Source: a bacterium (GTDB lineage: Bacteria; Electryoneota; Electryoneia; Electryoneales; Electryoneaceae). From it: 64,000 nucleotides of DNA. The position numbers and the translations under genes are program-made. The notes beneath the pieces were generated by a model, which was not told the DNA's origin, ran no database searches, and was given only the letters and a program-made list of their open reading frames with translations. The first letter of the stretch is position 1, and each line of letters starts with the position of its first letter. Where the stretch lies: assembly GCA_963669175.1 (NCBI GenBank), contig OY769902.1, positions 4,480,001-4,544,000 of the forward strand. The letters are read 5' to 3'. This document shows, piece after piece, positions 2,717 to 30,983 of this stretch.

Positions 2717-3324
2717 AGCAGGCTTTAGCCTGCTCCTCTTAGACCCCGGCTTTAGCCCTGTCTCTTTCCCACATCTTCTGAAAGCTGTATCAGTAAAAGA
2801 GTTGTGGACATAGCATTTTTAGAATCCCGGCGGGATTCCCTATTTTAGCATAGTGTACAGGCCGTCTGTTTGGCCTGTACACTATGTCAGGTATTCTAAC
2901 GAATAATCAACCCTGGAAGGGTTGCATAATATGCGATTCATATTAGTACGTTCAATAAATACAGGGAATAACGCATTTTATATTCTATACAAACCAATTG
3001 GGTGTAAATTATACGTTATACAACCCTTCCAGGGTTGAGATAAGGTTTGATCTTTTTCGTAGGGTAGACGCTAAACAGACAGCGTCAACCCTACGCTAAA
3101 ATATACCACCCCCTCTGGGGTGGCAGAAACACGAAGATGTGAGCAAGAGACAGGGCTTTAGCCGGGGGAACAAGGAAAACAACCGTTCGAGCGCCCTTCA
3201 GGGTGCTTTCCTGATACGTATTGATTCGATGACGTTCAAGCACGCTAAAGCGCGCTCATAGCTTTTGTTATATCCATCCACCCGGCTAAAGCCGGGTGCT
3301 AAGGGGAGCCTGCTGAAGCAGGCT
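2717..3324. repeat. REPIN-like palindromic repeat, copy 1 (~200 bp once the MITE is removed)
   Basis: Hairpins AGCAGGCTTTAGCCTGCT, CCCGGCTTTAGCCGGG, GAGCGCCCTTCAGGGTGCTT, AAGCACGCTAAAGCGCGCTC, CCCGGCTAAAGCCGGG, AGCCTGCTGAAGCAGGCT; same architecture at 14572-16501 and 29665-30675. Confidence 0.85.
2758..3153. mobile_element. 396-bp MITE with IS50/Tn5-like ends, copy 1
   Basis: Ends CTGTCTCTTTCCCACATCT ... AGATGTGAGCAAGAGACAG; direct repeat GGCTTTAGCC at 2748-2757 and 3154-3163. Confidence 0.9.
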
Positions 3325-3445
3325 AAATACTTACGAATCAGCAAAAATACTCGGGAACCCCTATACTTTTGAAATCCTATTTACATTGGATTTCATTACA
3401 ACACGAACAGAAACGATCCTTATTCCTACGCTGATCAAGCAAGAA

Positions 3446-4012
3446 CTAAAGATTTTCATATCTTTTAGGAAATATCCACAGTAGAACGTAGTTACGGAAG
3501 AAATTAAATATTGCCCAATACATCACTAATGCTGCTTTGATAAAGTAGAAGATTATTGTAACGGCGGCCAACACCGGCGCTGCAGCGAGACCGGAAGCGA
3601 TCCCTGGAACATAGTGTTCTTCTGACCTCAAAAAACTATGGCTGGAATCATAAACATCGTACTTGACAGTTCCACCCTTAAAAGAATCCCTGATAAGCAT
3701 GGCGAAAAAGTTTGGTTCATCTTCATTGGCCTGCTTCTTCGCACGTGCGACAAGTACTTTGATGGGTACACGGCTGGCAAAGTAGTAGAGGATTGCCCCA
3801 CCAGCAGTCAAAATGATTATTTCCCAGATCTTCCACGTTGATAAAAACAGTGTCAGTGTGCTTTCATTATTTCCTGCAAGATGCAGTTTAGCGATATAAT
3901 ACCAAATTTCTATCGCACCGACAAAAAATGGCGCTATAACCAGGAACCAACTTCCACTAAATACACGTTTGTTTCCATTATCTTTAGATTGCTTCTGTTC
4001 TTCCTTTGCCAT
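3446..4012 (-). CDS. Hypothetical membrane protein
   Basis: 188 aa ORF with 3-4 hydrophobic segments and an upstream GGAGAG RBS. Confidence 0.65.
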   Translation of the reverse strand: MAKEEQKQSKDNGNKRVFSGSWFLVIAPFFVGAIEIWYYIAKLHLAGNNESTLTLFLSTWKIWEIIILTAGGAILYYFASRVPIKVLVARAKKQANEDEPNFFAMLIRDSFKGGTVKYDVYDSSHSFLRSEEHYVPGIASGLAAAPVLAAVTIIFYFIKAALVMYWAIFNFFRNYVLLWIFPKRYENL

Positions 4013-4387
4013 CTTTCACTCTCCTCCCCATGAAAAGAATGGAACTGCTCCCCCAGGTTACATGTAGCTGAGAAGCACGTCCCAAAGCTTTGTGACAATT
4101 GAGTTCTCCCATTGGACACATTGAAAGTTAGGCCACTTCCCAACATGTGTCAACCGATTCAATCACGAAAATATCTTGTCTTTTTATCTTTTGAAGTCTG
4201 TTTGATCCTACATGAGGATTTCTGCTTGTCAAAGGCGAATTGGTTGCAAGACGATTTCATCCAGTTATTGAGGGTCACAGAAAATGGAATCAACCAACAA
4301 ACAGTCGCCACGTGATCAGTTCGAAGGGAATGCGGCGAATAGTCCCCATATTCACCTCACTTTATGCGGTGATCAACCTTACGATTC

Positions 4388-4540
4388 ATGAGCACCTCTA
4401 CATATGCCAAGCTGTCTACGTGGTCAGATGATACGGCACTCCGTGACTTCCAGGAGCTGAAGACGCAAGGAATCCTCCTGCAAAATCCAGGCGGTGGACG
4501 CAGTACAAGTTATAGACTCCCGCACAGGGAGAGTATGTAG
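4388..4540 (+). pseudogene. C-terminal wHTH remnant of a Fic (DUF4172-type) protein
   Basis: Manual translation MSTSTYAKLSTWSDDTALRDFQELKTQGILLQNPGGGRSTSYRL matches the DTALRD...GGGRSTSY tail of Fic proteins; no Fic core upstream. Confidence 0.7.
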
Positions 4541-4731
4541 GCATCTCACTTGTTGGTGAGTGGAAGATTGGGGACAGACGGAAGCTACTTTTGTGTATGT
4601 TATTGTTATATTGTTGATTAAAGATAGTGTACTACGGTTTATCCCTGGTTACTCTCACTAATTCTTGAGTCATGGCCTTATATCGCATTATTAAATGAGC
4701 CCTGAATTCTTCAATTCGTGTCGACATACTA

Positions 4732-4761
4732 TTGACAGGCATGTGTCATATGCCATACTAT
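4732..4761 (+). promoter_or_regulatory. Sigma70-type promoter for the candidate small RNA
   Basis: TTGACA 4732-4737, TACTAT 4756-4761 (18-bp spacer); spacer is near-palindromic GGCATGTG-T-CATATGCC. Confidence 0.65.
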
Positions 4762-4767
4762 TAAGTA

Positions 4768-4838
4768 CTCATCAGCCAGCTTCACAGTCGTAAGAGCTGA
4801 AGGAGATGGATCCGCCGTCTGAGCGGATCTTCTTTTTT
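4768..4838 (+). ncRNA. Candidate ~70-nt structured RNA convergent with the DUF3800 operon
   Basis: Lies between a promoter and an intrinsic terminator with no ORF; CAGCT..AGCTG stem; DUF3800 genes are known neighbours of structured RNA motifs. Confidence 0.6.
4808..4838 (+). terminator. Intrinsic terminator
   Basis: GGATCCGC-cgtctga-GCGGATCT hairpin followed by TCTTTTTT, abutting the stop codon of the minus-strand gene. Confidence 0.75.
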
Positions 4839-5358
4839 ATATACGGTTGTTGTACTTCCGCTCAAAGTCCTGACGTTTGTACTCGCTGGTCACATAAAAT
4901 GATGTAACCAACCGGTATGAACCATTATCATACTTTTTCAGGATGACCACGAAATCTTCATCTCTGAACCATATATATGTTTTGATATCTCCGTCACCTT
5001 CTTCATAATCCCAAAACAGCAGCTCCGGTTCACACGAGTTCTCTATAAAAGCATGCACCCACGGCAGACGTTCACATCGTGATGGATCCGGCAGTCGCTC
5101 CTTGTCATCGTCTTGTTGCTGGTCGCGGTAGAACTTCTGTTTTCTTCTTGGTACGAATTGCTTACTTTGTTTTCTGGTTGTCAGGTGCCAGAATACCTTT
5201 TCTTTTCCATCTTCCATTTCCGGGAACGTCCACACCCCATCACCCTGAAAACGGAGATTCCGATCTCGGATAGTAGCGCAGAAAATCAAATAGAGCATAT
5301 CATAAGTGTCCTCAGTCCAGGGATTCACGTCAGCAGTGTCTGGGAGCCATTCACACAT
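4837..5358 (-). CDS. Small DUF3800-partner protein (possible BECR/RelE-like RNase fold)
   Basis: Probable start MCEWLP at 5358 overlapping the DUF3800 stop; motifs FWHL, RCERLPW, YRLVTSFY. Confidence 0.7.
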   Translation of the reverse strand: MCEWLPDTADVNPWTEDTYDMLYLIFCATIRDRNLRFQGDGVWTFPEMEDGKEKVFWHLTTRKQSKQFVPRRKQKFYRDQQQDDDKERLPDPSRCERLPWVHAFIENSCEPELLFWDYEEGDGDIKTYIWFRDEDFVVILKKYDNGSYRLVTSFYVTSEYKRQDFERKYNNRI

Positions 5359-6070
5359 GTTCAATCCCCCCGTTCCTTGGACGCCAGATGCAAACATTGA
5401 ACTTGCGTTCCGTAGGAAGAGTGTTCCTGTCGAGGGACAAGCCTGTACGATTTTTAATATGGTTAACAACAGCGAGTTTGGCCTGACTGGATGAAAGACC
5501 TCTGGCGTGGTATGAAACAGCGCCGATTAAAACATCGGCAAGCTGAAGCAGCCCTACGTCATGTGATTGAACATGCTGCATTTTCTGGATGATTGACCGT
5601 TCAAAATCATAGTTGGCGTTGCTTAGTACGTCACCTAGCTTCTGTAGTTTTTTCCTGCTCCTAGTATCCTTGATATCCAAGTAGATGTGGTACCTTCTGT
5701 CTGTGGCAATCAAATTCCTGATCAGGTAGAAGTACATCTTGTAATACCATTCATCATGAGTCTGATGCATCGCCTCGTGGTCCAGTACTGTTTTATCTGG
5801 AATGACCCAGGCACGAAATCCCATGCTACGGCTATCGAAGAAATAGTCCAGTAATTCCAGGTAGAAGTCCAACTTTCCTGTGGATACCTTTGTCCACTTA
5901 ATCTCGAAATATCGTGATAAACCATGTTTCTGTTTCAACGCTGCGATGGCCTGATTGTGCTGGTAAGTTCTGCTCTTCAGTGTCCACAATGCCCCAAGCA
6001 CCATAGCTTTCTCTTTGTCATTCGGCAGGTGACAACTTTCATCGCAATAGATGTTGATGATTCCATCCAT
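5351..6070 (-). CDS. DUF3800 domain protein (RNase H-like fold)
   Basis: N-terminal IYCDESCH, central EIKW, C-terminal LQLADVLIGA motifs. Confidence 0.9.
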   Translation of the reverse strand: MDGIINIYCDESCHLPNDKEKAMVLGALWTLKSRTYQHNQAIAALKQKHGLSRYFEIKWTKVSTGKLDFYLELLDYFFDSRSMGFRAWVIPDKTVLDHEAMHQTHDEWYYKMYFYLIRNLIATDRRYHIYLDIKDTRSRKKLQKLGDVLSNANYDFERSIIQKMQHVQSHDVGLLQLADVLIGAVSYHARGLSSSQAKLAVVNHIKNRTGLSLDRNTLPTERKFNVCIWRPRNGGIEHV

Positions 6071-6079
6071 GCTGACCTC

Positions 6080-7333
6080 TTACTTTGGTTGTACGTACAA
6101 GTTTATCAGAAATACTTGGACTGTAACTTCACGGTCTGGATCGTCACTGCTCTTCATCTGGAAGCACCACTCGTGTGGTTGACCGGGATCAACAGTTCGA
6201 ATATAATTCGGGTGGCCTGTGAAGACTTCCGACATCTTCTCCTGGATCTTGGCGAAGTGTTTATTCTCTTTGTTAAAAAAGACCAGTGCGCCCTTACAGT
6301 CCCGCCAGGTTGAGTAGCTCAGTAGCTGGTCAATAGCGTCTTTGGCAGCTTGTTCACCATGCCAGATCTTACATTCACCTACGAAAGCAGAACGGTCATC
6401 GGTTTGAACATGAATATCGGTTTTTCCGGATTTCCTGAATACTTCTCCTCTGGCTTCACCCTTGTAGATACCATTGAGGTAAGCCACAACAACATCACGA
6501 AGCTCCTCTTCATCAAGCTTACAAAACGTCGATGGTGTCGTTTCAAATGAACGTCCTGAATGGCGAATGATAGAAAGAATTGTCTTGTAGTCCTCATCAC
6601 TGATCCCTGGCTCGGGCTTTATGTTCGGAGGCTGTGGTAATGGCTTGACGATAACCTGCCTGATTGGGATCGCAGTGTAGTCAGGTGACTCTGGTTTCTT
6701 CTTCAGGGGAATTGTCAGTTTCGCAAAGGTGTCTTCGATCTTCTTCTTCCTTGCCATACGTGCATCCACGAACATTGCCACTAATTGTTGCAGCTCTTTG
6801 TTGTGGGCTTCCACCTGTTCATTCGCTGTATTCGTGACATATTGAATGAAGTCAATATCCTGCCGATAAAGGTCATCTGTAAGCTGTTCACTACGATCGA
6901 GTGGAACGCTATACTTCATGCGAATTATTCCGAGCTCACTTGCAGTTGGGGCAGTAACTTCGGCCTTGGGTGGTGACCCCTGGTAAACACGGACAGCCGG
7001 AAAATAATCAAGCAACTCAGGATTCCCCGTGAAAGGAATAATTATAACCAGTTCAAGGCTGCTGATATTGAAAGCACGTGATCTATTAGGAATATGTCTC
7101 TGAGGATTACGACTGACGTCTATAACTCCTTCGGAACTTTCCCTGTATGGTTCATGTAGTTGAATAGGCTGAATGGTGAATCTGGAAACCACATGATCAA
7201 CTAGTTCTTGACGTAATGACTCGACAAACCGGTTGTCCTCCAGCCGTTCAACATAGGCTCTAATGCTCTCCTGCTGACCGGCAATGACCTGCTCGAGCCG
7301 ACCCTGGTTGAAAAGTTGTCTGACCATCATCAT
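6080..7333 (-). CDS. Protein with C-terminal PD-(D/E)xK restriction-endonuclease-like domain
   Basis: EEELRD...GE.FRKSGKTDI...FVGECKIW...QLLSY motif; 9 bp upstream of the DUF3800 gene. Confidence 0.75.
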   Translation of the reverse strand: MMMVRQLFNQGRLEQVIAGQQESIRAYVERLEDNRFVESLRQELVDHVVSRFTIQPIQLHEPYRESSEGVIDVSRNPQRHIPNRSRAFNISSLELVIIIPFTGNPELLDYFPAVRVYQGSPPKAEVTAPTASELGIIRMKYSVPLDRSEQLTDDLYRQDIDFIQYVTNTANEQVEAHNKELQQLVAMFVDARMARKKKIEDTFAKLTIPLKKKPESPDYTAIPIRQVIVKPLPQPPNIKPEPGISDEDYKTILSIIRHSGRSFETTPSTFCKLDEEELRDVVVAYLNGIYKGEARGEVFRKSGKTDIHVQTDDRSAFVGECKIWHGEQAAKDAIDQLLSYSTWRDCKGALVFFNKENKHFAKIQEKMSEVFTGHPNYIRTVDPGQPHEWCFQMKSSDDPDREVTVQVFLINLYVQPK

Positions 7334-7759
7334 GGTTGATCCTCTGTATATCTGTTTATAACAACAATTCTATCAATTGTATGATTCGACAGTGCTTCGT
7401 AAAAAGCAGGATATGAGCGTATCTCTTTTAAGTAATTCATGCAGTTGTATCCTCACCTGCAGAATCCTCAGCAGTGTGTTCTGCGGCTTCGAATTGAATG
7501 ACAGGCAATAGTTCCTTCAGAGCATCAACGAGGGGTTGACCACTTTCACTTTTCAAGAACCTTTTTACTTTGCTGTGGTATGAGCCGGAAGCATACTCCA
7601 GTTCTTTCTCTGCCGTTGGACGCAAAACTAGAAAACTAAGAAAACTAGGGACAGACGGTAGTTTCTTTCAGGTTAAGCACCTGACATGTCGCTGTTTGCA
7701 AATAATACACTACCATCTATCTTCATTTTACCAGCTTCCTTTTTCCCACAACACGTTTA

Positions 7760-14556: not shown

Positions 14557-14775
14557 AATGGCACTAGTATTAGCGGGCTTTAGCCCGCTCTTTTTAGCAC
14601 CCGGCTTCAGCCCTGTCTCTTACCCACATCTTCTGAAAGCTGTATCAGTAAAAGAGTTGTGGACATAGCATTTTTAGAATCCCGGCGGGATTCCCTATTT
14701 TAGCATAGTGTACAGGCCGTCTGTTTGGCCTGTACACTATGTCAGGTATTCTAACGAATAATCAACCCTGGAAGG

Positions 14776-16087
14776 CAGAACTGTCCGGTTTAACAGATCA
14801 TTTTTCTTGCTGACGTAGTGTCAGCCATATTCCGTTTTCGTTTTGTTCTTTGAGATTCTTGCCACGCATGGTTTATCGGCGTTTGCATCAACGCATGGAC
14901 AGCCAGGAACACCATCAGCCGATGAGCAGTGATTGCTTGATTGGGTGCTTGTTGCTCGATGATTCGCACCATCAGGTAGGCGATCATGGCGATCCAGACC
15001 TGGATCAACACTGCATTCATGTCGGTTCCCAGGTAGGTCTTGATCTTCAGGTTCTGCTTGATCCATTTGAAGAACAGTTCGATCTGCCAACGTTCCCGGT
15101 ACAGGTCGGCAATCACCAGCGCATCCACATCAAGCAGGTTGGTCAGGAACTCAAGATCGTTGCCGGTTTCGGGATCGACGAAGCGGATCAGGCGCAACGG
15201 TTCGGGGCAGTTAACGCCGCAATCGCCGTCGAGATAACCAATCCAGTCACGTCGAACACCTGCTTTTCGGTCGCAGTGACGTCGTTCTTCATACCCGAAG
15301 CCGATGTTACGCTTGATCCGCGTGACAAAGAAAACACCTTGGTTGCATAACTGGTAGAACCAAGCGCTATCGAAGTACCCTTTGTCGAACAAGACAGTAT
15401 CGCCTGGATGGAAGCGGAACTTTCGTCCCTGGGGCATATCGTGGCCTCGCGCGGCGGTCACCCTGATGACACTTGGGATGTAGCCATCATGATCGAGCTG
15501 GGTGTGCAACTTCATCCCGCCCTTGCGTGTTCTGTATTCAGCCCAGCCGAACAGGGTCTGACACAAGGGGATCACAGTGCTGTCCAAGCTGAACAGTTTT
15601 CCGGGCACATCGAACGTATGACGCGGAAATTGATCCTTGACTGTTGCGAACAGGCTGTAGAACAGATCGCGGTAGAACATCCAGGGAACACGAAGATTTG
15701 CCTCTGCAAGAGTAGAACGGGGCGTCTGGCGTATTCCACAGCGACGTTGTACAGGTGTCAAAGCTACCGTCGCCTGCTCAATCTGGCGGAGCGATGGCAG
15801 TCCGGCCAGTTGCGCGAAAAGCATAACCGCGAAGTGCGCGCGGGCCGTCATCTTCCGAACACCTTTGTTGACCTGATACTGCGTAGCAAGATTATCAAAG
15901 AGCACAGGTTCAATCAGGGCAAGCATTTGCCCCAGAACAATGTTACCTTTCGCCATGGCTTGGTCCTCCGGTCGTGGTGAGAAAACTTGTGCAAAAGCAA
16001 TCTCAACACACGAACCTCTGGATTCAAGCCATTATTATTTCAAGAGCTCCATGGCTCCATATGCAAATCACGAACCGGACAGTTCTG
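14776..16087 (-). mobile_element. IS4-family insertion sequence (1312 bp)
   Basis: Perfect 15-bp TIR CAGAACTGTCCGGTT; 9-bp duplication CCTGGAAGG at 14767-14775 and 16088-16096. Confidence 0.95.
14790..15956 (-). CDS. IS4-family transposase (DUF4372 + DDE)
   Basis: LDSTVI, FDKGY, YRERWQIELFFKWIKQ (YREK signature). Confidence 0.95.
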   Translation of the reverse strand: MAKGNIVLGQMLALIEPVLFDNLATQYQVNKGVRKMTARAHFAVMLFAQLAGLPSLRQIEQATVALTPVQRRCGIRQTPRSTLAEANLRVPWMFYRDLFYSLFATVKDQFPRHTFDVPGKLFSLDSTVIPLCQTLFGWAEYRTRKGGMKLHTQLDHDGYIPSVIRVTAARGHDMPQGRKFRFHPGDTVLFDKGYFDSAWFYQLCNQGVFFVTRIKRNIGFGYEERRHCDRKAGVRRDWIGYLDGDCGVNCPEPLRLIRFVDPETGNDLEFLTNLLDVDALVIADLYRERWQIELFFKWIKQNLKIKTYLGTDMNAVLIQVWIAMIAYLMVRIIEQQAPNQAITAHRLMVFLAVHALMQTPINHAWQESQRTKRKRNMADTTSARKMIC

Positions 16088-16721
16088 CCTGGAAGGGTTG
16101 CATAATACGCGATTCATATTAGTACGTTCAATAAATACAGGAAATAACGCATTTTATATTCTATACAAACCAATTGGGTGTAAATTATACGTTATGCAAC
16201 CCTTCCAGGGTTGAGATAAGGTTTGATCTTTTTCGTAGGGTAGACGCTAAACAGACAGCGTCAACCCTACGCTAAAATATACCACCCCCTCTGGGGTGGC
16301 AGAAACACGAAGATGTGAGCAAGAGACAGGGCTTCAGCCGGGGTGAAAAGATACTGAAAATCATTCTGAGCGCGCTTTAGCGTGCTTGCCTGTTACAAAT
16401 CCTGGTTCTGGAAAGCACCCTGAAGGGCGCTCGCCACTTCTAAATTGCCATGAACACCCCGGCTGAAGCCGGGTGCTAAGAAGAGCCTGCTGAAGCAGGC
16501 TGAAAACTGTTAAATCTACACAAACTTCAGGTAATCATAATAATATGGATAAATCTTCATTTCGAAGTAAAGGTCCGTTGCCGGGTTGCTGAGAACACAA
16601 AACGCGCCGTACCACTAAAAAAGTCATAGAAGCAAAAGCCCCTCTCACCACTTGACAGTATGCTGTCAATTTGGTAATATGCTGTCAAGTTTACTTCACA
16701 TCCAACAAGGGAGATTGCAGC

Positions 16722-19861: not shown

Positions 19862-20083
19862 TTAACCAACGGGTTGAAAAATTCTTAGAGTTTTTTGAGT
19901 CTGGCGTTTTTGACTGGTTTTAAACTCTATTTTCTGTTAACCAGAAAGTGGCTTATAAAACTCGTGAAAATCGCGAAAATCGCGAGCCTATGAGAATTGA
20001 AAAGAACTTAAGAGTTTGATAACTAAAAGGTTGGAAACAGTAAAACCCCTCTCAAAAGGGGCTGTTAACTAAAAACCCAGAGA
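19862..20083 (+). repeat. ~220-bp dispersed non-coding repeat, copy A
   Basis: Colinear, diverged match to 54131-54352. Confidence 0.85.
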
Positions 20084-20330
20084 GTTTTATTTATTATATG
20101 TGATGCTTGATGGAATGGCCAGTACAAGAACCACGGCATTGGTTCCCTGAATTAACCCATCGCCCAGCGCCGTCTGTTTGGCGCTCACGGTGGGAATGGG
20201 GTGTACGCTACTTGCCATCCCCTGCAGCGGGTTGCCCCTGCCAAAGCGGTTTCAGAAACTCAGCCTCAGTTTGCCAGCGAAATAGGGAATACACTCAAAG
20301 GGATACCGGAGCAAACTATACCCTGAAGAA

Positions 20331-20600: not shown

Positions 20601-20651
20601 ATGACCATTCGCTTGTTGTCACTTCCATACAATCATTTTACCTTCCACAGT

Positions 20652-23357
20652 ATGGATATTGAACTGAACCTCACTCCCACAGGCCATCTTCTTTTGCAAG
20701 GGCCAGACGTTGACGCATCGATTTCTGATCGTTGGATGAAGCGGGTTGTGTCAGGATTTTCGGTATCGGAAGCGGAAGGATTGTTTGCTTTGGCTGCTAC
20801 ACAGCCATCCATTCCTCCTCCCGCAGCCTTCAGCTATTGGCGTGAGTTCGCTGGCCGATATTTAGCCGAACTCTGTCGCACCCCCAATCCGGAGGGACAG
20901 TCATTCGACCTGATCGCGCCTCCCGATGAAAGTGAACTTGCTACGTTGCTTCTTTCCGCCCCACCCATGCCAGGAGGTGAATACCTCACGATCAATGTAT
21001 TCCGTGATCTCTGGGCGGAGTTGGACCTTTGGATTCGTGGAAAAATTGCTGAGTCCGGACAGGAATTGAGCGCTTGGCTGGAATCAAACGCTCCTACCTG
21101 GCGAAAAGTCGGCAGAGTCTGTTTTCACCTTGCCGAGAACAAGCGTGATCCGGACTACCCATTTGCCTTTCTGGCGACTTACGCACCACGTCTCTCCCGT
21201 GGCGGAGTTGTGCAGTACCGGCCTCTTGGAAAAGCACTTCAGGAATATGCTGGTGAAGGGAACAAGAAAGCGCTGCTGAAACTTCTTGAGCCAGTTTCTA
21301 ACGCTGCTGAACACGTCGAATTTGTGCGTGATATGGTGGAATCCGGCGAGATCTATCATCCAATAGCCTGGACCCCTGAGGAAGCCTACCGGTTGCTGAA
21401 GCATGTCCCTGATCTGGAAAAGAGCGGCTTACTCGTACGTCTTCCCGACTGGTGGCGGAAGCGTCCTCGTCCACAGGTTTCAGTAACCGTGGGAGAAAGA
21501 CAGAAGAGCCAGTTTGGGGTTGACGCCTTGCTCGATTTCCGTGTAGCGCTTTCCCTCGGTAACGAGGAACTGACGGAAGAGGAATACCACGCGTTGCTGG
21601 CTGCAGAAGACGGTCTGGTCTACGTCAAGGGCACATGGGTTGAAGTGGACCAAGAGAAATTGTCCGAGGCGCTAAAGCATTGGAAGCGGATCGAGGCAGC
21701 ATCGGACGAGGGCGTCTCATTCATCGAAGGGATGCGTCTGCTGGCAGGCGCGCCGGCAGATCTGGGCGCTAAAGCAGAATCCGGCACTCGGCTCAGCGAT
21801 TGGACGGACATCCGTTCCGGCGACTGGTTGCGAGATGTACTCGCCGGGTTACGCAATCCAGACCTGCTCACCCAGGACGGCCCGAGCCCGAACCTGCGCG
21901 CTACCCTCCGCCCTTATCAGCATGTGGGGCATAATTGGCTCTGGTTCCTCAGTAGCCTCGGTCTCGGCGCCTGTCTTGCTGATGATATGGGGTTGGGCAA
22001 GACAATCCAGTTACTCTCGCTGTTGGTCGCATTGAAAGAACGGCGCCCTTCTCCAAAACCATCGCTGCTCGTGTTGCCGACATCGCTGCTCGCCAATTGG
22101 AAAGCCGAGATCGAACGGTTTGCACCGACACTGAAGGTGGTATTCGTCCATCCATCGGAAACTGATCCCGCTTTACTTGATACACTTGCGGAAGATCCCA
22201 AAGGCACTCTGGCGAGCGTAGACCTCGTGCTCACCAGCTACGGTATGCTATCGCGGCGCATGTGGCTGCATGATGTGGAGTGGCGGCTCCTGATTCTCGA
22301 CGAAGCACAGGCGATAAAGAACCCTGCCACTCGGCAGACACGGACTGTGAAGAAGCTAAGAGCCGACACTCGCCTGGCGCTTACCGGCACACCGATTGAA
22401 AACCGACTCGGCGATCTTTGGTCGCTGTTCGATTTTCTTTCCCCAGGCCTGCTCGGATCGCATACAAAATTCAAAGGATTCGTTAAAAGCCTGGATTCTC
22501 GAGAACAGGACAGGTACGCTCCATTACGCAACCTGGTCGGACCGTACATCCTGCGCCGTATGAAAACAGATAAACGGATCATTGCAGATCTGCCGGACAA
22601 GACAGATGTGAAGGCGTATTGCGGTCTCGCCAAACGCCAGGCTGTGGTTTACCGTAAATCAGTTGAAGAACTCGCAGCAGCGCTGAATGGTCGGACGGGC
22701 ATTCAACGGCGTGGGCTTGTGCTTGCCTACCTGATGCGTTTCAAGCAGATCTGCAATCATCCGAGCCAGTACCTCAATGACGGCATCTTCAAACCATCCG
22801 AGAGTGGGAAATTTCAGAGGTTGCGTGAAATCGCTGAAGAACTGGTAATTCGCCAGGAGAAAGCGCTTATCTTTACACAGTTTCGCGAAATGACAGAACC
22901 GATAGCGGCCTTCCTTGAAACGGAGTTTGGGCGAGATGCCATCATATTACACGGCGGCACACCAGTAAAACGCAGGGGAGCACTGGTTGACAGTTTCCAG
23001 CAAGAGGATGGACCGCCTTTCTTCATCCTGTCGCTGAAAGCGGGCGGAACCGGGCTGAACCTCACTGCCGCCTCGCATGTCATACATTTTGATCGCTGGT
23101 GGAATCCAGCGGTTGAGAACCAGGCGACGGATCGAGCGTTTCGCATTGGACAGCAAAGAAATGTGCTTGTCCACAAGTTTATCTGCCGCGGCACCATCGA
23201 AGAAAAGATTGACGCCATGATCGAGGAAAAGTCGAACCTCGCAGGTGACATCATCGACACGGGAGCGGAATCCTTGCTTACCGAGATGAACGATGAGGAA
23301 CTGATCGACGTGGTTACGCTTGATATAGATCGAGCACTAACAGGAGCTGACGAGTGA
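20652..23357 (+). CDS. SNF2-family helicase/ATPase
   Basis: LADDMGLGKT, LDEAQ, TGTPIEN, QATDRAFRIGQ; likely start MDIEL at 20652. Confidence 0.93.
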   Translation: MDIELNLTPTGHLLLQGPDVDASISDRWMKRVVSGFSVSEAEGLFALAATQPSIPPPAAFSYWREFAGRYLAELCRTPNPEGQSFDLIAPPDESELATLLLSAPPMPGGEYLTINVFRDLWAELDLWIRGKIAESGQELSAWLESNAPTWRKVGRVCFHLAENKRDPDYPFAFLATYAPRLSRGGVVQYRPLGKALQEYAGEGNKKALLKLLEPVSNAAEHVEFVRDMVESGEIYHPIAWTPEEAYRLLKHVPDLEKSGLLVRLPDWWRKRPRPQVSVTVGERQKSQFGVDALLDFRVALSLGNEELTEEEYHALLAAEDGLVYVKGTWVEVDQEKLSEALKHWKRIEAASDEGVSFIEGMRLLAGAPADLGAKAESGTRLSDWTDIRSGDWLRDVLAGLRNPDLLTQDGPSPNLRATLRPYQHVGHNWLWFLSSLGLGACLADDMGLGKTIQLLSLLVALKERRPSPKPSLLVLPTSLLANWKAEIERFAPTLKVVFVHPSETDPALLDTLAEDPKGTLASVDLVLTSYGMLSRRMWLHDVEWRLLILDEAQAIKNPATRQTRTVKKLRADTRLALTGTPIENRLGDLWSLFDFLSPGLLGSHTKFKGFVKSLDSREQDRYAPLRNLVGPYILRRMKTDKRIIADLPDKTDVKAYCGLAKRQAVVYRKSVEELAAALNGRTGIQRRGLVLAYLMRFKQICNHPSQYLNDGIFKPSESGKFQRLREIAEELVIRQEKALIFTQFREMTEPIAAFLETEFGRDAIILHGGTPVKRRGALVDSFQQEDGPPFFILSLKAGGTGLNLTAASHVIHFDRWWNPAVENQATDRAFRIGQQRNVLVHKFICRGTIEEKIDAMIEEKSNLAGDIIDTGAESLLTEMNDEELIDVVTLDIDRALTGADE

Positions 23358-24589
23358 GTTTCTACGGCTGGTATCCAAAGGAAACCGTCGCCATGAAACG
23401 TGCGCGGGCGATAAAACAGATTAACAAACTTCGTAAACAGGGCCGCGAGATTCAACCTGTCGCTATCGAGGGCAAGACAATCGCACGTAGCTTCTGGGGC
23501 AAGGCGTGGTGCGAACATTTGGAATCGTTCAGCGACTACGAAAACCGGTTGCCGCGAGGACGAACCTACGTACGAGCGGGCACCGTCTGCCATCTCGAGA
23601 TAAATGAAGGTGTGGTTGACGCACTCGTAAGCGGAACGAGTCTATACAAAGTACATGTAGAGATTGCTCCGCTCTCACCTGAGAACTGGCAACGAGTAAA
23701 ACGCAATTGCTCGGGGCAGATCGGATCACTTCTAGAACTATTACAGGGAAAATTGTCTGATCATGTAATGGCATCAGTCACAGACCGTGAAAATGGGCTT
23801 TTTCCACTACCCGGTGAGATGAAATTCAACTGCAGTTGTCCGGATTGGGCGACAATGTGCAAACACGTGGCCGCAGTTCTATATGGTGTGGGCGCTAGAC
23901 TGGATAAACAACCATCGCTGCTTTTCACATTGCGCGGCGTCGATCACCAGGAACTGATCGCCAGTGAACTGAACATCGTCTCAACTGTGTCGCCATTGGA
24001 TAAGCGCCGTAGAATTGACGATGACGCTCTCGGTGACGTATTCGGGATTGATATTTCCGATGAGGCCGATGATCCGGAGGCGCCAGTTATTCGAACGTCC
24101 ACCAAAGGTAAGCCTAAAGCAAAGAAGAAGACAAAACCGGCGCCTTTAAAGGAACAGACTGCGAGAAAAGGAACAGCGAGTAAAAAGACATCCCGCTCCA
24201 AACCTCCTGAAAAGCAATCGGAGAAACGGAAAACATCGCGGAAAGCCAAGTCCATCCAGAAGAAGAATCCCACGTCGACAACGAGAAAGACGTTGGGAAA
24301 GGAAAAACAAGGGTATCGTGGTCCTGCGCGTATGGCGCCGCCCAAGCAGAAATCCCCGGGCGCTTCACCGGTGACCGGCAAGAAAGTCGCTGACTTGCGC
24401 TCGAAATTCCATATGACGAAAATCCAATTCGCAAAGCTGATCGGCGTATCCACACAATCGATAACAAATTGGGAAAAGAATACTGGATTATTGAACCTTC
24501 AAGACCGCACCTTTGACTCATGGTGCAAGGTCAAGAAACTTTCTCGGCAATCAGCATGGAAGACACTGGACAAACAAGATCGCAGGTAA
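23354..24589 (+). CDS. SWIM zinc-finger protein with Lys-rich linker and C-terminal XRE-type HTH
   Basis: CSCPDWATMCKH; RLPRGRTY; FAKLIGVSTQSITNWE. Confidence 0.88.
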   Translation: MSFYGWYPKETVAMKRARAIKQINKLRKQGREIQPVAIEGKTIARSFWGKAWCEHLESFSDYENRLPRGRTYVRAGTVCHLEINEGVVDALVSGTSLYKVHVEIAPLSPENWQRVKRNCSGQIGSLLELLQGKLSDHVMASVTDRENGLFPLPGEMKFNCSCPDWATMCKHVAAVLYGVGARLDKQPSLLFTLRGVDHQELIASELNIVSTVSPLDKRRRIDDDALGDVFGIDISDEADDPEAPVIRTSTKGKPKAKKKTKPAPLKEQTARKGTASKKTSRSKPPEKQSEKRKTSRKAKSIQKKNPTSTTRKTLGKEKQGYRGPARMAPPKQKSPGASPVTGKKVADLRSKFHMTKIQFAKLIGVSTQSITNWEKNTGLLNLQDRTFDSWCKVKKLSRQSAWKTLDKQDRR

Positions 24590-25321: not shown

Positions 25322-25331
25322 AGAGGATAAC

Positions 25332-26282
25332 ATGACCACACTTGCCCCCACAAATCCCCGGTCTCCTCTTGGCAGGTTGATTCAGGAGCGATTACTGGCT
25401 CACGGCCCCATGAATAAACAGACAATGCACAGGATTATCCAGGAAACCATTGAGGAATACAATCGATCTTCGCGGGATGAACTCGCAGGACTTTCGCCTG
25501 AACAGGTGCCAAAACTATTATCGTCTGATTATATCAGCGAAGATTCAGTCGTTAAACTGAATCCGGACATCCCATTTGAGCGTCTGAAAGATCACGAACT
25601 TCTGAACAATGCAAGGAACTTCTTGAGTTTGTTGCAACTGGAGAACGGCACAAAAGCGACAAGTTATGGCTACCTGAATAGGGCGTTTGTGGCAAAAGCT
25701 ATAAAAGTGATGGTCTTTCCCGAGGAGTACCTAGAAAAGATATACCGAGTGAAAAAGGTCATCAACGAAACGGACGTATGGAGCCTGCATCTCGTCAGGG
25801 CTCTCCTTGATACGAGCGGAATTGTCAGGAAGTACAAGGGAAAATTCATCGTTTCGAAGAAAGGGAAGCCCTTTACAGATGAAAAGAATGCCGGAAAGCT
25901 GTTGTATGAGTTATTCCTCGGATTCCATGGAAAGTTCAATCACGCTTATCTTGACCGCTGGCCTGAAACAATGACAACCCGATATGCATTCCCCTTTTCG
26001 CTCCGCTTCGTGCATTATCGAAGAAACACCTGGATTGATAGAAATGACTTTATAAAGCTGCTTCCTCCCGGTGTGCTGGAACATGAGTTCAGTATTGAAC
26101 TTGGAGAATTCAATGAGCACCTGCCTACCAGTATCATTACTACCAGAATAATCAATCCACTAGAGATGTTCGGCCTTATCGAGAAACGGTACATTCCTGA
26201 TCCCAAGTTCCCTGGAAGCACCATACTTTCGGCTATCAAATCCACCAAACTGTTTGAAGAGTTTGTCCGTTTTGAGCTCTAA
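25332..26282 (+). CDS. Hypothetical protein
   Basis: 316 aa ORF with RBS, 10 bp after the SEC-C gene. Confidence 0.7.
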   Translation: MTTLAPTNPRSPLGRLIQERLLAHGPMNKQTMHRIIQETIEEYNRSSRDELAGLSPEQVPKLLSSDYISEDSVVKLNPDIPFERLKDHELLNNARNFLSLLQLENGTKATSYGYLNRAFVAKAIKVMVFPEEYLEKIYRVKKVINETDVWSLHLVRALLDTSGIVRKYKGKFIVSKKGKPFTDEKNAGKLLYELFLGFHGKFNHAYLDRWPETMTTRYAFPFSLRFVHYRRNTWIDRNDFIKLLPPGVLEHEFSIELGEFNEHLPTSIITTRIINPLEMFGLIEKRYIPDPKFPGSTILSAIKSTKLFEEFVRFEL

Positions 26283-26653
26283 TATCATGTAACAGAAGCA
26301 TCCGACGACTTCTTTTCGGTCTTCCATGTAGCAATAATTCTTACCAGTTGACGTCCTTGTATGGAAGATCGCTTTCTGCTTTTCTATCAAACTGGAAACA
26401 TATCACTGAAAAAAAACTATCAGTAGGAATTCAAGTGGGACAACAATGAAGAAAGTCAGGAGTTTTAACAGTATAGATTTTATCGATGGATTCACCGTAG
26501 ATCGCATAAACGGTAAACATAAATCTTCCTATAAATACGAAAAACCCCAGTTTTCACTGAGGTTTTCTGGCTCCTCAATAGGGGCTTACTCGGCCCCCCC
26601 CCTTATAATCCCCAAATTTCGCCAGGTTTTTCAATGTTTGGATCATCAAAGCG

Positions 26654-27976
26654 CTACAAGGATGCAATCCAATCCGGCATCATCTCTTTTATCTCGATTT
26701 TCAACTCATCCAAGTCATCTTCTTCAATCAATTGTTTTTCCTCCAGCATGAAGGTGTAGAACTTCTTCAGACTGGCAGCATTCTCCCGGATACTTGTAGC
26801 TGACGCCCATAGCGCTTTACGGATAAACCAGTATCCCAGAAAACCATTTACGTGGTTTACTCCCTCAGCAGCCGTGGTGGTATCGTCGTAGAGCAAGTAC
26901 TGGTTCACATAGAAGTAAATATTTTCATAGTGTTTCCGGACAGTTTTCTCTGACAATCCTTTTCCACGCAACCAGAAGAGAAAGTCCGTCAACAGATTCT
27001 CATTTTCGTTACGAATCTTCTCGCATTCCTTCTCGAAGGTCTCATAATCGAAAGAAGCATGCGCTTCATTCCCCTGGACTCCTCCTATAAACCCTGAATC
27101 ATTGATTGATATGATTCGCGCATTCATACCTTCATCATTTGGCTCCAGGTTCGTGTCATAATCCATGATTTCACGAATTGTGCGTAAAGATGATGACGGC
27201 GCACGCTTGGTCGATTTTTGCTGCCATGCCATAAACATGTTTCTTAGTGTCCCTTCAGCGCTTGCATTCTTTCCGTCCATAAGTTGTTTCAGAACAGGTC
27301 GAACGTCTCCCATCGAAAGCACATCCAACCATTTTTCCACATCCTGTTGTAGAGAGTCGTCAGCCTGGTCTGTAGCGTTATCTTGCAGCGCATCTTCCAC
27401 AAGATCGAGATCCACTTCCAGAAATTCAGCCAGCGCTCGCTGGGCATTTGTTATTTTCCCCAATCCTGTAACACAGAATGGCTCCTTATCATCGTCGTCG
27501 AAAAAGTCATACAGCACAGCCATGAACCAGCCAATATATACGCTTCGATAATCTCCTCGAAGCAATTCCTCACGGATCGCCGCAAGACGTATCATCCACC
27601 CCTCGCCATCCTCCATGGCAAAACGATCATCATCATCTCCTTCCTCAAGATGCCAGGTCAGAATGATATGTGATTTCGTAAACGTATAATAGAAGAACTC
27701 ATTCGCTGCTGCCTCGACAATCTCGCGTGGGATTGCTGAGAGTGGCACTCGAACCATCAATATTGCCGTCCGCCAATTGGCAACATAGATATGAACATCG
27801 AAATAGCGTTTCATCAGCGCTTCAGGATTGCCTTTAAAATCTCCCCAATTGTATACAGTGGTAAAACTTGTTGGTGTAATACGGGCTCGTGAATAAACAG
27901 ATTGCAGAGCGTCAATATCATCCTCAGAAAGAGGTTTCTCTATCGCCAGAAACTCGTAGTACTGAAATTCACTCAT
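26654..27976 (-). CDS. Two-domain hypothetical protein (MSEFQYYEF-type N-terminus + integrase-SAM-like C-terminus)
   Basis: Start MSEFQYYEFLA overlaps the upstream stop; C-terminal KGLSEKTVRKH...FLGYWFIRK...SLKKFY. Confidence 0.7.
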   Translation of the reverse strand: MSEFQYYEFLAIEKPLSEDDIDALQSVYSRARITPTSFTTVYNWGDFKGNPEALMKRYFDVHIYVANWRTAILMVRVPLSAIPREIVEAAANEFFYYTFTKSHIILTWHLEEGDDDDRFAMEDGEGWMIRLAAIREELLRGDYRSVYIGWFMAVLYDFFDDDDKEPFCVTGLGKITNAQRALAEFLEVDLDLVEDALQDNATDQADDSLQQDVEKWLDVLSMGDVRPVLKQLMDGKNASAEGTLRNMFMAWQQKSTKRAPSSSLRTIREIMDYDTNLEPNDEGMNARIISINDSGFIGGVQGNEAHASFDYETFEKECEKIRNENENLLTDFLFWLRGKGLSEKTVRKHYENIYFYVNQYLLYDDTTTAAEGVNHVNGFLGYWFIRKALWASATSIRENAASLKKFYTFMLEEKQLIEEDDLDELKIEIKEMMPDWIASL

Positions 27977-28304
27977 CACCGGATTCCTTCTTTTTTTTGA
28001 CTGCACGAAAGGAAGAATTATCGCCGAAATGAAAGTAGATTCTCCCGTTCAATTCACCGTTTTCTATGCAAGCCCACCCACGCCCACAGGCTGGATCCAT
28101 CTCGTCACTTCCATCCCAGGTGAATTCAATTCGTTCCTGTCCATTTGAACCTTCAACCTGGCAATCCATGAAGCCAACGACCAATCCGAACTGAAAATCA
28201 CCAGTTCTATCAGTGTTAAATTTCAGATATCCTGGTACTTCCATATCAATGAAGCTTTTATCCCACAGCTCCATTTCTTCGATCATCCATGTCCCGGTAA
28301 ACAT
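27969..28304 (-). CDS. Small conserved hypothetical protein
   Basis: G.W.I.EME.WD...G.FQFG...FTW.G.DEMD...GRGW pattern; strong RBS. Confidence 0.7.
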   Translation of the reverse strand: MFTGTWMIEEMELWDKSFIDMEVPGYLKFNTDRTGDFQFGLVVGFMDCQVEGSNGQERIEFTWDGSDEMDPACGRGWACIENGELNGRIYFHFGDNSSFRAVKKKKESGDE

Positions 28305-28479
28305 GCCCTCCCCCGCTATGACTGTTTATACCTTCTCAAGTAATAATACTTGATAGTAGAAGCATCCACAATCTCAGAAAGGGTTATAGTAGTAGATTCC
28401 TTCTCGAAGATATCTACGCATTGTGTGATTTCTGCTTCATCGCCTCTTCAATTCCTCCTCGTTTATCTCTTTCCTGAAC

Positions 28480-28568
28480 AATTCTTTCATCCGACCTGAT
28501 TCAAATTCATCAGAATTTTAAGCTTTGCATCCCAATCTTTCGCACGGATTGCATTTTGACGAGGCACA
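28480..28568 (+). mobile_element. Degenerate right end of the TGT..ACA MITE family
   Basis: CGCACGGATTGCATTTTGACGAGGCACA matches the right ends at 40877 and 54085; left boundary approximate. Confidence 0.6.
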
Positions 28569-28582
28569 ACCAGAATCCTGAA

Positions 28583-29326
28583 TCAGGAGGATGTGTTCCC
28601 TGGTCTCATCTGGATGATCCTGGTTTTTGCGAGCCACTGAATCACCGGGTAAGCCGGATCAAACTCATGCGGTTTTGCGGCAAGGTTGGGATTACCTGGA
28701 TCATGGTGGTGGTTATTCTGAAAGAGTTCACCCAGGGTGAGAAAGTCAACTGGCAAGGCGTTTGTGGAGCGATCCGGGTTGTCGAAGTTACGGTAGCCGT
28801 ACTTGTGGCCACACCAGTTGACAATTGCACCATGTACCGGCCCCATCACAACCTGTACTGGCAACAGCAACCAGTGCCACCAGCGATTGGCAAAACGAAT
28901 ATAGAACAGCAGGTACAAAAGAATAAAAACTAGTGGATAAACGACATTACCTGTAATGATACGGTCAAATGTTTTCCATTCGGGGACATTTAGATCAAAC
29001 TGCTTTCCCACTTCGGACCGTTTGTAAAGGATATCGCTGTAAATCCTGTAGGTACGCAACATCATATCCATGACATTTTTTGAATGGACCGGTGAGTGGG
29101 GATCCTCTGGTTTGTCGGCGTGGGCGTGGTGCAGACGGTGCAGGATGGCATAGGCACGTGGGTTGAGATAAGACGACCCCTGGGTTACAAAGGTGAAGAT
29201 GTAGAAAAAACACTCCCATCTTTTACTCATAATGAACATCTTGTGGGATCCGTAACGGTGGAGAAAAAAGGTCTGAGCAAAACCCGCCAGCATCCAGTGC
29301 GCAAGAAAAAATGCCAGGATTGCCAT
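28583..29326 (-). CDS. Membrane fatty-acid (acyl-CoA) desaturase
   Basis: His boxes HRYGSH, HRLHH, NNHH; DPHSP. Confidence 0.92.
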   Translation of the reverse strand: MAILAFFLAHWMLAGFAQTFFLHRYGSHKMFIMSKRWECFFYIFTFVTQGSSYLNPRAYAILHRLHHAHADKPEDPHSPVHSKNVMDMMLRTYRIYSDILYKRSEVGKQFDLNVPEWKTFDRIITGNVVYPLVFILLYLLFYIRFANRWWHWLLLPVQVVMGPVHGAIVNWCGHKYGYRNFDNPDRSTNALPVDFLTLGELFQNNHHHDPGNPNLAAKPHEFDPAYPVIQWLAKTRIIQMRPGNTSS

Positions 29327-29425
29327 GGTATCCTCCCCAGGTTTAGCCTTCCTGTTGTTCGAAAAGACCCCTCAGACTGCCGATCTTCTTCCAGCAGTAC
29401 ACGTTGGTTATTATAAACCTGCTTA

Positions 29426-29454
29426 TAGCAATTAGCAATTAGCAATTAGCAATT
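29426..29454 (+). repeat. Heptamer tandem repeat (TAGCAAT)x4
   Basis: Read directly. Confidence 0.85.
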
Positions 29455-29705
29455 TACTATCAGCTATCCAGAACAAACCTTGCTTTTCCACTACCATGTG
29501 GATAAAACAGGGATATAATTTACAGGACAAGGCCAAAAACTTCAGCAAAGTCAAAAGAATCTAACTATCCTCAGAGTCTGTTCTTTACAACAACCAGGTC
29601 AATAGTATTTTCGTTCTTGAAAGTATAGCGGTTGCCGAAAGTTTCTGCTGATTGAATAGCCGTTAGCCTGCTTCAGCAGGCTCCTCTTAGCACCCGGCTT
29701 TAGCC

Positions 29706-30101
29706 CTGTCTCTTACCCACATCTTCTGAAAGCTGTATCAGTAAAAGAGTTGTGGACATAGCATTTTTAGAATCCCGGCGGGATTCCCTATTTTAGCATA
29801 GTGTACAGGCCGTCTGTTTGGCCTGTACACTATGTCAGGTATTCTAACGAATAATCAACCCTGGAAGGGTTGCATAATACGCGATTCATATTAGTACGTT
29901 CAATAAATACAGGAAATAACGCATTTTATATTCTATACAAACCAATTGGGTGTAAATTATACGTTATGCAACCCTTCCAGGGTTGAGATAAGGTTTGATC
30001 TTTTTCGTAGGGTAGACGCTAAACAGACAGCGTCAACCCTACGCTAAAATATACCACCCCCTCTGGGGTGGCAGAAACACGAAGATGTGAGCAAGAGACA
30101 G
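29706..30101. mobile_element. IS50-end MITE copy 3 (396 bp)
   Basis: Duplication GGCTTTAGCC at 29696-29705 and 30102-30111. Confidence 0.9.
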
Positions 30102-30266
30102 GGCTTTAGCCGGGTGAAAGGAGATAAGCGAAAATATGAGCGCGCTTTAGCGTGCTTGCATGTGACAAAGAATATGCATCTGAAAAGCACCCTGAAGGGC
30201 GCTCGATTAACTGGACATATGTTACCCATAGCTAAAGCTGTGGGCTAAGAGGAGCAGGCTAAAGCC

Positions 30267-30661
30267 CTGTCTCTTACCCACATCCTCTGAAAGCTTTTTC
30301 AGCAAAAGGATTGTGGACATCGCATTTTTAGAATCCCGGCGGGATTCCCTATTTTAGCATAGTGTACAGGCCGTCTGTTTGGCCTGTACACTATGTCAGG
30401 ATTTCTAACGAACAATCAACCCTGGAAGGGTTGCATAATGAGCAGTCAATATTAGTTTATTCAATTATTACAGGTAATAACGTAATTTATATCCTTTATA
30501 AATCAATTGGGTATCAATTATACTTTATGCAACCCTTTCAGGGTTGATATGAGGTTTGATCTTTTTCGTAGGGTAGGCGCTAAACAGACAGCGCCTACCC
30601 TACGCTAAAATATCCCACCCCCACGGGGTGGCAGAAACACGAAGATGTGAGTAAGAGACAG
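30267..30661. mobile_element. IS50-end MITE copy 4 (395 bp, diverged)
   Basis: CTGTCTCTTACCCACATCC ... AGATGTGAGTAAGAGACAG; duplication GGCTAAAGCC at 30257-30266 and 30662-30671. Confidence 0.9.
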
Positions 30662-30983
30662 GGCTAAAGCCTGCTAAACTAGCAAGTTATTTGTTCCCAT
30701 AGGATTGTAATTCATGATATGCTATTGCCGTGGAACCACTGCTTTGTTATAGATACTCAGCCAAAGGCAGCCCTGTTATCAACCTGAAACAGCAAGGACT
30801 TCCAAGAAATACTACAAGTTGTGATGAATGCGCTTAAACGTCATTCCCGCGAACCGTAGCGAAGCGACGTTTGCGGTGTGCGAAGCACAGCCGCACATAT
30901 ACTCCCTTCGAAAAACAGGAGGAGAACCCTGATCAAGTCAAGGATGACCTAACCGGAACTTACTTTCAAGATTGACTATAGCG

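Follow-up and report, generated by a model that had tools for sequence, protein, structure and literature searches.

We analysed a window of 64,000 nucleotides (G000:C1:4480001-4544000) from a bacterium of the Electryoneaceae, whose genome of 5.45 Mb is assembled as one contig and is referred to hereafter as G000. The window carries four copies of a MITE (a miniature inverted-repeat transposable element), each inserted in a hairpin of a repetitive extragenic palindromic (REP) repeat of the host. The 19-mer CTGTCTCTTACCCACATCT, which forms one end of the MITE, matched the window eight times at three mismatches or fewer, against an expectation of 0.01, and the matches formed four inverted pairs that delimit the elements listed in Table 1. 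Three of the pairs enclose elements of 395–396 bp. The remaining element, copy 2, spans 1,717 bp, because a 1,312-bp insertion sequence (IS) of the IS4 family has inserted inside it. All four elements are flanked by direct repeats of 10 bp, and deletion in silico of an element together with one repeat copy restored a perfect small hairpin. The hairpin struck was CACCCGGCTNNAGCCGGGTG, referred to as H2, in three cases and GCAGGCTNNAGCCTGC, referred to as H1, in one. Copy 4 shares about 89–90% identity with the other window copies and represents a second subfamily.

A first-pass annotation of this DNA had quoted the end sequences and a 10-bp duplication for each window copy, and these were as given, apart from one extra change at the left end of copy 1. 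The four copies of about 396 bp that it reported were recovered as inverted end pairs, although that length does not hold for copy 2. Where it counted three hairpin positions as targets, only two kinds were found in the window.

The interior of the MITE consists of a module with three hairpins and a second, inverted copy of the same module. This module is homologous, with compensatory changes in the stems, to modules at G000:C1:2671226-2672100 (L062), upstream of a Y1 transposase gene at G000:2672107 that resembles those of the REP-associated tyrosine transposases (RAYTs). The MITE therefore looks like a pair of IS50-type ends placed around a doublet resembling the REP doublets forming hairpins (REPINs). 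No open reading frame (ORF) of at least 80 amino acids (aa) was present inside the intact window copies, and comparison of the MITE hairpins with Rfam gave only sub-threshold matches resembling plant miRNAs, which we took to be due to chance.

Table 1. MITE copies, target duplications and associated features in the window. The REPIN structure of the host of copy 1 was defined from the arrays at the Y1 transposase locus.
Feature	Position	Strand	Details
Host REPIN of copy 1	2718-3323	.	H1 2718-2733, split H2, H3-like 3191-3206, intact inverted H2 3279-3298 and H1 3308-3323
MITE copy 1	2758-3153	+	396 bp, subfamily A; private left-end change CTGTCTCTTTCC
Target duplication of copy 1, GGCTTTAGCC	left 2748-2757, right 3154-3163	.	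with flanks rebuilds hairpin gaccccGGCTTTAGCCggggg
MITE copy 2	14613-16329	+	subfamily A; halves 14613-14775 and 16088-16329, nested IS between
Target duplication of copy 2, GGCTTCAGCC	14603-14612 and 16330-16339		10 bp
Nested IS of the IS4 family	14776-16087	-	1,312 bp; ends CAGAACTGTCCGGTT, unrelated to MITE ends
Transposase gene of nested IS	14790-15956		388 aa, DDE_Tnp_1 and DUF4372
MITE copy 3	29706-30101	+	396 bp; identical to 12 other copies
Inner module of MITE copy 3	29760-29885	+	three hairpins; inverted second copy 29955-30075
Target duplication of copy 3, GGCTTTAGCC	29696-29705 and 30102-30111		in hairpin H2
MITE copy 4	30267-30661	+	395 bp, subfamily B; 89.6% identical to copy 3
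Target duplication of copy 4, GGCTAAAGCC	30257-30266 and 30662-30671		in hairpin H1 (gcaGGCTAAAGCCtgc), same REPIN as copy 3

The IS nested in copy 2 has a 9-bp duplication of its own, CCTGGAAGG, which is centred on the dyad of an inner hairpin of the MITE, caaccctggaagggttg. It is present twice in the genome, and the other copy (G000:2420811) has no obvious hairpin at its site.

Insertions in the chromosome and their targets

The genome contained 44 insertions of the MITE, 42 of them intact copies identified by blastn and two interrupted. The elements are 395–398 bp long and have the 19-bp ends CTGTCTCTTACCCACATCT and CTGTCTCTTGCTCACATCT. Subfamily A comprises 29 intact copies with a mean identity of 99.4%, 13 of which are identical, and subfamily B comprises 11 copies with a mean identity of 98.9%; a further two copies are singletons. 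These mean identities indicate that both subfamilies are young. Exact direct duplications of 10 bp were found at 35 of the 44 insertions. Most of the remaining nine had hybrid pairs of two REP loops, as predicted for recombination between copies. Five copies had a different REP loop on each side (G000:C1 positions 1750582, 3926219, 271929, 1183775 and 2144036), and the loops of 1750582 and 3926219 were reciprocal, AA/TC and TC/AA. This suggests that MITE copies have recombined with one another, possibly with rearrangement of the chromosome; the hybrid direct repeats of ISRm22 have been explained by recombination between copies (PMC1525189). Where the duplications were not palindromic (for example GCCGTTAGTT, CTAATATACC and ACTATAAACC), their orientation was direct and not inverted, demonstrating that they are true target duplications rather than extended terminal inverted repeats. 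The element thus has the properties of a MITE, being short and multicopy, with terminal inverted repeats and target duplications and without a transposase gene.

The insertions are independent of one another, as the first-pass annotation had proposed for the window. The 13 identical MITEs occupy different and unrelated targets, every one with a duplication of its own. In three pairs of copies the flanks are paralogous, with the similarity extending up to about 120–200 bp on at least one side. In these pairs the MITEs are more alike (98.7–99.5% identity) than the flanks of at least 78 bp (83–95%); one flank of 18 bp is identical. The copy at G000:4233277 shares the private left-end change of window copy 1.

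The sequence GGCTNNAGCC, which is the core of both H1 and H2, occurs 223 times in the genome, compared with 84 occurrences expected from base composition, and 45 of these are duplication copies adjoining MITE ends. H1 and H2, together with a third hairpin, H3 (GCGCGCTTTAGCGTGC), make up an inverted doublet. The same H1-H2-H3 arrays lie in inverted orientation on either side of a Y1 transposase gene (Y1_Tnp match at G000:1503099-1503437), indicating that the host repeat is a system of the REPIN-RAYT type. Of the H2 16-mer there were 72 occurrences in this genome, frequently paired at a spacing of about 130 bp, and 0–6 per genome in 16 relatives. Both Y1 loci are adjoined by long tandem-repeat arrays whose units measure about 18–45 bp (G000:C1:2671400-2671980, 1502400-1502500 and 1503600-1503800).

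Occupancy of the repeats was counted after removal in silico of all 44 elements. H2 was occupied at 20 of 96 sites, H1 at 3 of 45 and H3 at 0 of 38 (Fisher tests, H2 versus H3 p = 9e-4 and H2 versus H1 p = 0.048). With the strict pattern, 23 of the 44 insertions lie in the 141 H1 and H2 centres, about 20,000-fold above random, and all 23 duplicate exactly the central 10 bp. This bears out the concentration at REP hairpin centres that had been noted from the window copies. H3 has a CTNNAG centre and is unused, which indicates that such a hairpin is not sufficient and that flanking bases matter. At GGCTNNAGCC sites outside H1 and H2, 0 of 60 were occupied; this figure is uninformative, since long open frames contain 54 of the sites and, of the six that remain, five are degenerate REPs.

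When one mutated copy is allowed, 24 insertions lie inside GGCTNNAGCC, and the division between insertions inside (23–24) and outside (20–21) is nearly even; a majority outside was what the first-pass annotation had named as refuting its reading. Six insertions are centred in a second palindromic repeat, gaatagcgcgg-GGTGTAAACC-ccggg, and others lie in a second MITE family of 469 bp and in further repeats. Apart from these six and the GGCTNNAGCC insertions, most sites fit a looser symmetric consensus, CC-SSS|GGYTW·WARCC|SSS-GG. The half-site derived from the 21 sites outside GGCTNNAGCC, CC-S-S-S|G-G-Y-T-T, is a looser form of the REP sequence. Altogether, 29 of the 44 sites are in DNA present at least three times and eight are in unique DNA. 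Twenty-nine of the 44 sites are also no more than 1 nt from the midpoint of a perfect stem of at least 5 bp, as compared with 5.5% of 20,000 random positions outside ORFs. All but four insertions are outside open frames of at least 150 codons (40 of 44), while 87.6% of the genome is inside such frames. Orientation was unbiased, with 8 versus 5 insertions relative to the REPIN arm and 26 versus 18 by strand; this absence of bias fits a symmetric duplex target. Insertion at hairpin centres is a strong preference, not site specificity. The 'natural site-specific Tn5 relative' of the first-pass annotation is upheld as to preference and not as to specificity, given the insertions outside GGCTNNAGCC and those in unique DNA; nor, with 20–21 of the 44 insertions elsewhere, does the family show the 'type 1 association' of Tobes and Pareja that marks a REP-specific IS.

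The 469-bp MITE family has 43 near-full copies, with ends CCGAATATTTCA and a 5-bp duplication, GCTAA (G000:C1:847912-848380). The 396-bp MITE is inserted in hairpins of this family at G000:904351 and 3100592, one 469-bp MITE interrupts a copy of the 396-bp MITE, and a partial 469-bp copy lies in the window at about 20107-20330. An older relic of the 396-bp MITE (G000:C1:517740-518137), 77% identical and with a right end, CTGACTCTTACACACATCT, unlike that of both subfamilies, together with a solo IS50-like end (G000:C1:140818-140836, two mismatches) that runs into unrelated sequence, points to long residence of the MITE lineage in the genome. Other end-like matches were a truncated copy (1392845-1393018) and a solo end (2154927).

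IS50-type ends and related elements

The MITE ends start with CTGTCTCTT, and of the 19 positions of the right end, 17 agree with the IS50 inside end in an authentic Tn5 record (OW969902.1, 1800-1818; L129). A degenerate form of the end was scanned in one genome per species, yielding 51 loci. In a metagenome-assembled genome (MAG) of the Chloroflexia (L053), identical 19-mer ends bound an IS of 1,557 bp. The IS encodes a 482-aa protein that has the domains Tnp_DNA_bind, DDE_Tnp_1 and Dimer_Tnp_Tn5 and whose matches to solved chains of the Tn5 transposase reach about E = 3e-41. In a second Chloroflexia MAG (L061), the same 19-mer ends bound a frameshifted IS of 1,539 bp. The match to the IS50 inside end and the identical ends on Tn5-like ISs indicate that the MITE ends are those of the IS50 subgroup, in agreement with the earlier description of a non-autonomous element with IS50-type ends. 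The 17 of 19 match to the Tn5 mosaic end reported there is right for the sequence quoted, which is also found in adapter-like dimers at two Xanthomonas loci. These loci (L022 and L047, scaffolds of Xanthomonas arboricola NL_P126) carry back-to-back mosaic-end-like 19-mers and look like leftover Nextera adapter dimers.

The first-pass annotation had placed an IS50-like transposase elsewhere in this genome; neither a transposase for these ends nor an autonomous copy was found in the chromosome. Tnp_DNA_bind (PF14706) gave no match there, with positive controls, and Dimer_Tnp_Tn5 (PF02281) gave no match, though its controls were also silent. The 12 chromosomal matches to DDE_Tnp_1 (PF01609) all belonged to four other IS types with unrelated ends. 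When two Tn5-like proteins were used as tblastn queries against the chromosome, no match fell below E = 1, and the only inverted pairs of CTGTCTCTT ends within 6 kb of each other in the genome were MITEs, none of which encloses a gene. A 28-mer of the MITE left end had 0 matches in metagenomes, the 19-mer end pattern was found in 0 viral contigs, and comparison of the MITE with plasmids gave no match. The whole MITE was absent from 40 relatives, the sole match being a weak one of 53 bp to the inner module in G001, and no retrieved locus shared more than 21 bp with the MITE. The cognate transposase is either lost or located outside the one-contig assembly.

Related elements behaved in the same way. 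G009, a member of the same taxonomic family, has two copies of an intact IS50-like IS (1,476 bp, 463-aa transposase at L070 823-2214) with the 10-bp duplication GGTTCCATCC at the centres of the hairpins cggtGG..CCaccg and cgggGG..CCcccg. In G003, also of this family, the left end of a damaged IS50-like IS abuts cacccGGCTTCAGCC, which is the same H2 position. MITEs of 137–366 bp with the same ends were present in MAGs of Ktedonobacter, Calditrichaeota, Haloferacaceae and Haloarculaceae, in an uncultured bacterium and in metagenome contigs, and their 10-bp duplications include GACTGAAGTC, CCCTGAAGGG, CGCTTTAGCG and GGCTTTAGCC. All 15 related elements for which both flanks are known sit, to within half a nucleotide, at the midpoint of a perfect stem of at least 5 bp; these 15 are not independent, as a single 259-bp family supplies six of them and each of two pairs shares a genome. 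L093, which has a spurious partner end, and the adapter dimers L022 and L047 were left out of this set. The duplication was 10 bp in 14 of the 15 and 9 bp in L053, and the hairpin centre was CT-NN-AG in most elements, the G009 copies and L053 being the exceptions. Hairpin-centre insertion is thus common to ISs of relatives and to MITEs that share these ends in archaea and other phyla, and is not particular to this genome.

Variants of both the MITE and the REPIN were detected in X4, a marine metagenome of another study, where their summed contig depths were well in excess of the flanking depth (against window 2669-3336). There seems to be a related organism with the same repeat families in this metagenome.

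Choice of target

We conclude, with a probability of about 0.7, that the copies form a non-autonomous MITE family of the IS50 (Tn5) type that was moved in trans and inserted at the dyads of symmetric targets. A Tn5-like DDE transposase supplied in trans would move the MITEs by cut-and-paste and cut the target with a 10-bp stagger placed symmetrically about its two-fold axis. The transposase dimer would capture duplex DNA and read an extended palindrome of about 16–20 bp, made up of the duplicated 10 bp and the G+C-rich arms, and would join the two ends at points 10 bp apart. Read inwards to the dyad, the half-site would be CC-S-S-S|G-G-Y-T-W, giving G+C-rich arms and an A+T-rich centre; it resembles the target consensus of Tn5. 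Palindromic repeats satisfy both half-sites at once and would therefore be hot spots. The REPIN hairpins, CACCCGGCTNNAGCCGGGTG foremost, provide the closest matches and the largest number of them, and they lie in harmless intergenic DNA, so that about half of the insertions would fall there, and other palindromic repeats and a few unique sites would take the remainder. That the target is read as duplex sequence seems to us somewhat better than an even chance.

Several observations weigh against this interpretation. We infer mobilisation in trans, since the transposase was not found in the chromosome, and likewise the reading of duplex sequence as opposed to a hairpin, the two being inseparable on genome data. 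The IS ends of the G009 and G003 relatives differ from the MITE ends at 3–4 of 19 positions. Across taxa, the outer positions of the duplication vary (GA..TC, GG..CC, CC..GG and CG..CG) yet remain complementary, which hairpin recognition would equally explain. The duplication is 10 bp here, and the family table gives 8–9 bp for direct repeats of the IS50 subgroup (PMC2266710), with 'about 10 bp' for the IS4 family overall in the same source. Logan short-read contigs end at repeats and so do not span the junctions. Contig 'joints' in runs X1 and X2, both of which contain the region, were considered as empty sites and rejected, as they are paralogous REPs and not orthologous sites.

The transposase might instead recognise structure, in the form of a cruciform once extruded or of a hairpin in single-stranded DNA, such as could arise at replication forks or where intergenic DNA is supercoiled. 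It would then cut symmetrically around the loop, and any G+C-stemmed hairpin with a small A+T-rich centre would be a target. This would account for the excess of sites at perfect-stem centres in this genome and for the 15 of 15 outside it, for the use of at least two hairpin families with different loops, each struck at the centre, and for stems that differ and stay complementary, as at the two G009 sites and in GACT/AGTC, CCCT/AGGG and CGCT/AGCG elsewhere. Such complementarity is, however, expected without structure, because palindromes meet a symmetric sequence preference automatically. Moreover, H3 was never used in spite of its CTNNAG centre, H1 was used less than H2 in spite of a perfect 7-bp stem, and the 15 of 44 sites that lack a stem of at least 5 bp still fit the base consensus. 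The strand or orientation bias expected of a single-strand target was not seen, and published descriptions of Tn5 and Tn10 have them capture duplex targets that are bent, with contacts to the flanks (PMC2229646). We regard recognition of structure as unlikely.

Near-random insertion, in which only copies in harmless REP DNA survived selection, would be in keeping with the scarcity of insertions in long open frames and with the nature of REPs as neutral intergenic DNA. Selection cannot, however, set the register in which 23 of 23 GGCTNNAGCC insertions duplicate the exact central 10 bp. Nor does it account for the 23 of 44 insertions in H1 and H2 centres, which make up very little of the roughly 12% of the genome not occupied by long open frames, or for the neglect of H3 in the same REPINs, and we regard this explanation as extremely improbable. 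The association with REPs would be inherited if MITE-bearing REPINs had been copied by the Y1 (RAYT-like) transposase, and the pairs with paralogous flanks, the left-end change common to G000:4233277 and window copy 1, and the relation of the interior to modules beside another Y1 gene could all be read in this way. This is made very improbable by the higher identity of the MITEs than of the flanks in those pairs, by identical MITEs in unrelated targets and by the direct duplication of the loop dinucleotide at each site. Contamination with mosaic-end adapters or misassembly might be suspected from the likeness of the ends to the Tn5 mosaic end and from the true adapter dimers in two public loci, L022 and L047. 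Adapters would not explain 396 bp of structured interior, 44 copies with target duplications, two subfamilies or the other ISs nested within copies. Summed short-read contig depth over the element was about 60 times that of the flanks (X1 and X2), and variants occur in the X4 metagenome of another study; we consider the probability of such an artefact negligible.

The proposed IS50-type family can be compared with known systems. Tn10/IS10 and IS231A also use IS4-family transposases, with a symmetric consensus within the duplicated bases and an effect of flanking sequence. They differ from the MITE in duplications of 9 bp or 11 bp and in the bases of the consensus, and we know of no REP association for either. 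Work on Tn10 targets is cited in PMC2229646. The MITE resembles IS50/Tn5 (IS4 family, IS50 subgroup) in its 19-bp ends, in the autonomous elements with identical ends that encode all three Tn5 transposase domains, and in its symmetric target; Tn5 has preferred sites and flank effects (PMC2229646, PMC1525189), and palindromic Tn5 target sites are cited in the ISRm22 paper (PMC1525189). The MITE differs in having no transposase gene, in its 10-bp duplication as against 9 bp (Tn5) or 8–9 bp (subgroup, PMC2266710), in a far stronger target bias, with half of the copies in one 10-mer class, and in an interior that is a doublet of REP-like modules. With prokaryotic MITEs it has in common small size, terminal inverted repeats, target duplications, multiple non-coding copies, intergenic location and richness in hairpins (PMC10969869). 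We found in that review neither an IS50-derived MITE nor a MITE that targets REP centres, and it includes the reverse case, insertion of IS1111 into the palindrome of a MITE (PMC10969869). Insertion into REP palindromes is a likeness to IS1397, ISKpn1, IS621, ISPpu9, ISPpu10 and ISPa11.

The first-pass annotation had regarded REP-targeting ISs as unrelated to Tn5. Those of the IS110 type use a different enzyme and RNA guides. ISRm22 of Sinorhizobium meliloti, however, is a member of the IS4 family and inserts just at the axis of REP palindromy (PMC1525189), so that REP targeting of this kind was already known. Axis insertion in REPs and hybrid direct repeats are seen in both ISRm22 and the MITE. 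ISRm22, which is placed in subgroup IS4Sa (PMC2266710), is autonomous, has 6-bp repeats and is 100% REP-associated (PMC1525189), whereas the element described here is an IS50-type MITE with 10-bp repeats and 23–24 of 44 copies in the main REP. Our literature search found neither an IS50-type MITE, nor the 10-bp stagger, nor insertion at hairpin centres by all examined relatives of an element across Bacteria and Archaea, although the target figures of PMC2266710 could already show the consensus, and the MITE end sequences were not found in the published papers searched.

More tentatively, there may be a Tn5-like clade across Bacteria and Archaea, with the end CTGTCTCTT(A/G)C(C/T)CACATC and a 10-bp stagger, that intrinsically selects the dyad centre of G+C-stemmed, A+T-centred hairpins and may recognise extruded structure. 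Were this so, the REPIN hairpins of the host would be safe landing pads, and the MITEs of the clade, carrying here a REPIN-like doublet as cargo, could persist and burst when a transposase passes through. Members of the clade would be natural target-selective relatives of Tn5, the standard 'random' transposase of molecular biology. If a natural branch of the Tn5 family obeys a target rule that is strong, simple and symmetric, it would open a way into target choice in the IS4 family and provide a starting point for target-biased tagmentation or insertion tools. In this chromosome, one class of selfish DNA, the IS50-type MITE, uses another, the REPINs kept by a Y1 transposase, as landing sites; the family stays young where its transposase was not found, and the hybrid duplications suggest that its copies also recombine.

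Elsewhere in the window, positions 20601-24589 hold two ORFs. One encodes a 918-aa SNF2-type helicase with sub-threshold matches to models of the SCO1167 family, ZorD and DrmD; the other, of 411 aa and without an NCBIfam family, overlaps the helicase ORF by 4 bp at its start. The two could represent a defence-type pair. The window also contains two more two-copy repeat families of 170–180 bp and 83–90% identity, one at 19908-20087 and 54176-54355 and the other at 40708-40877 and 53916-54085.

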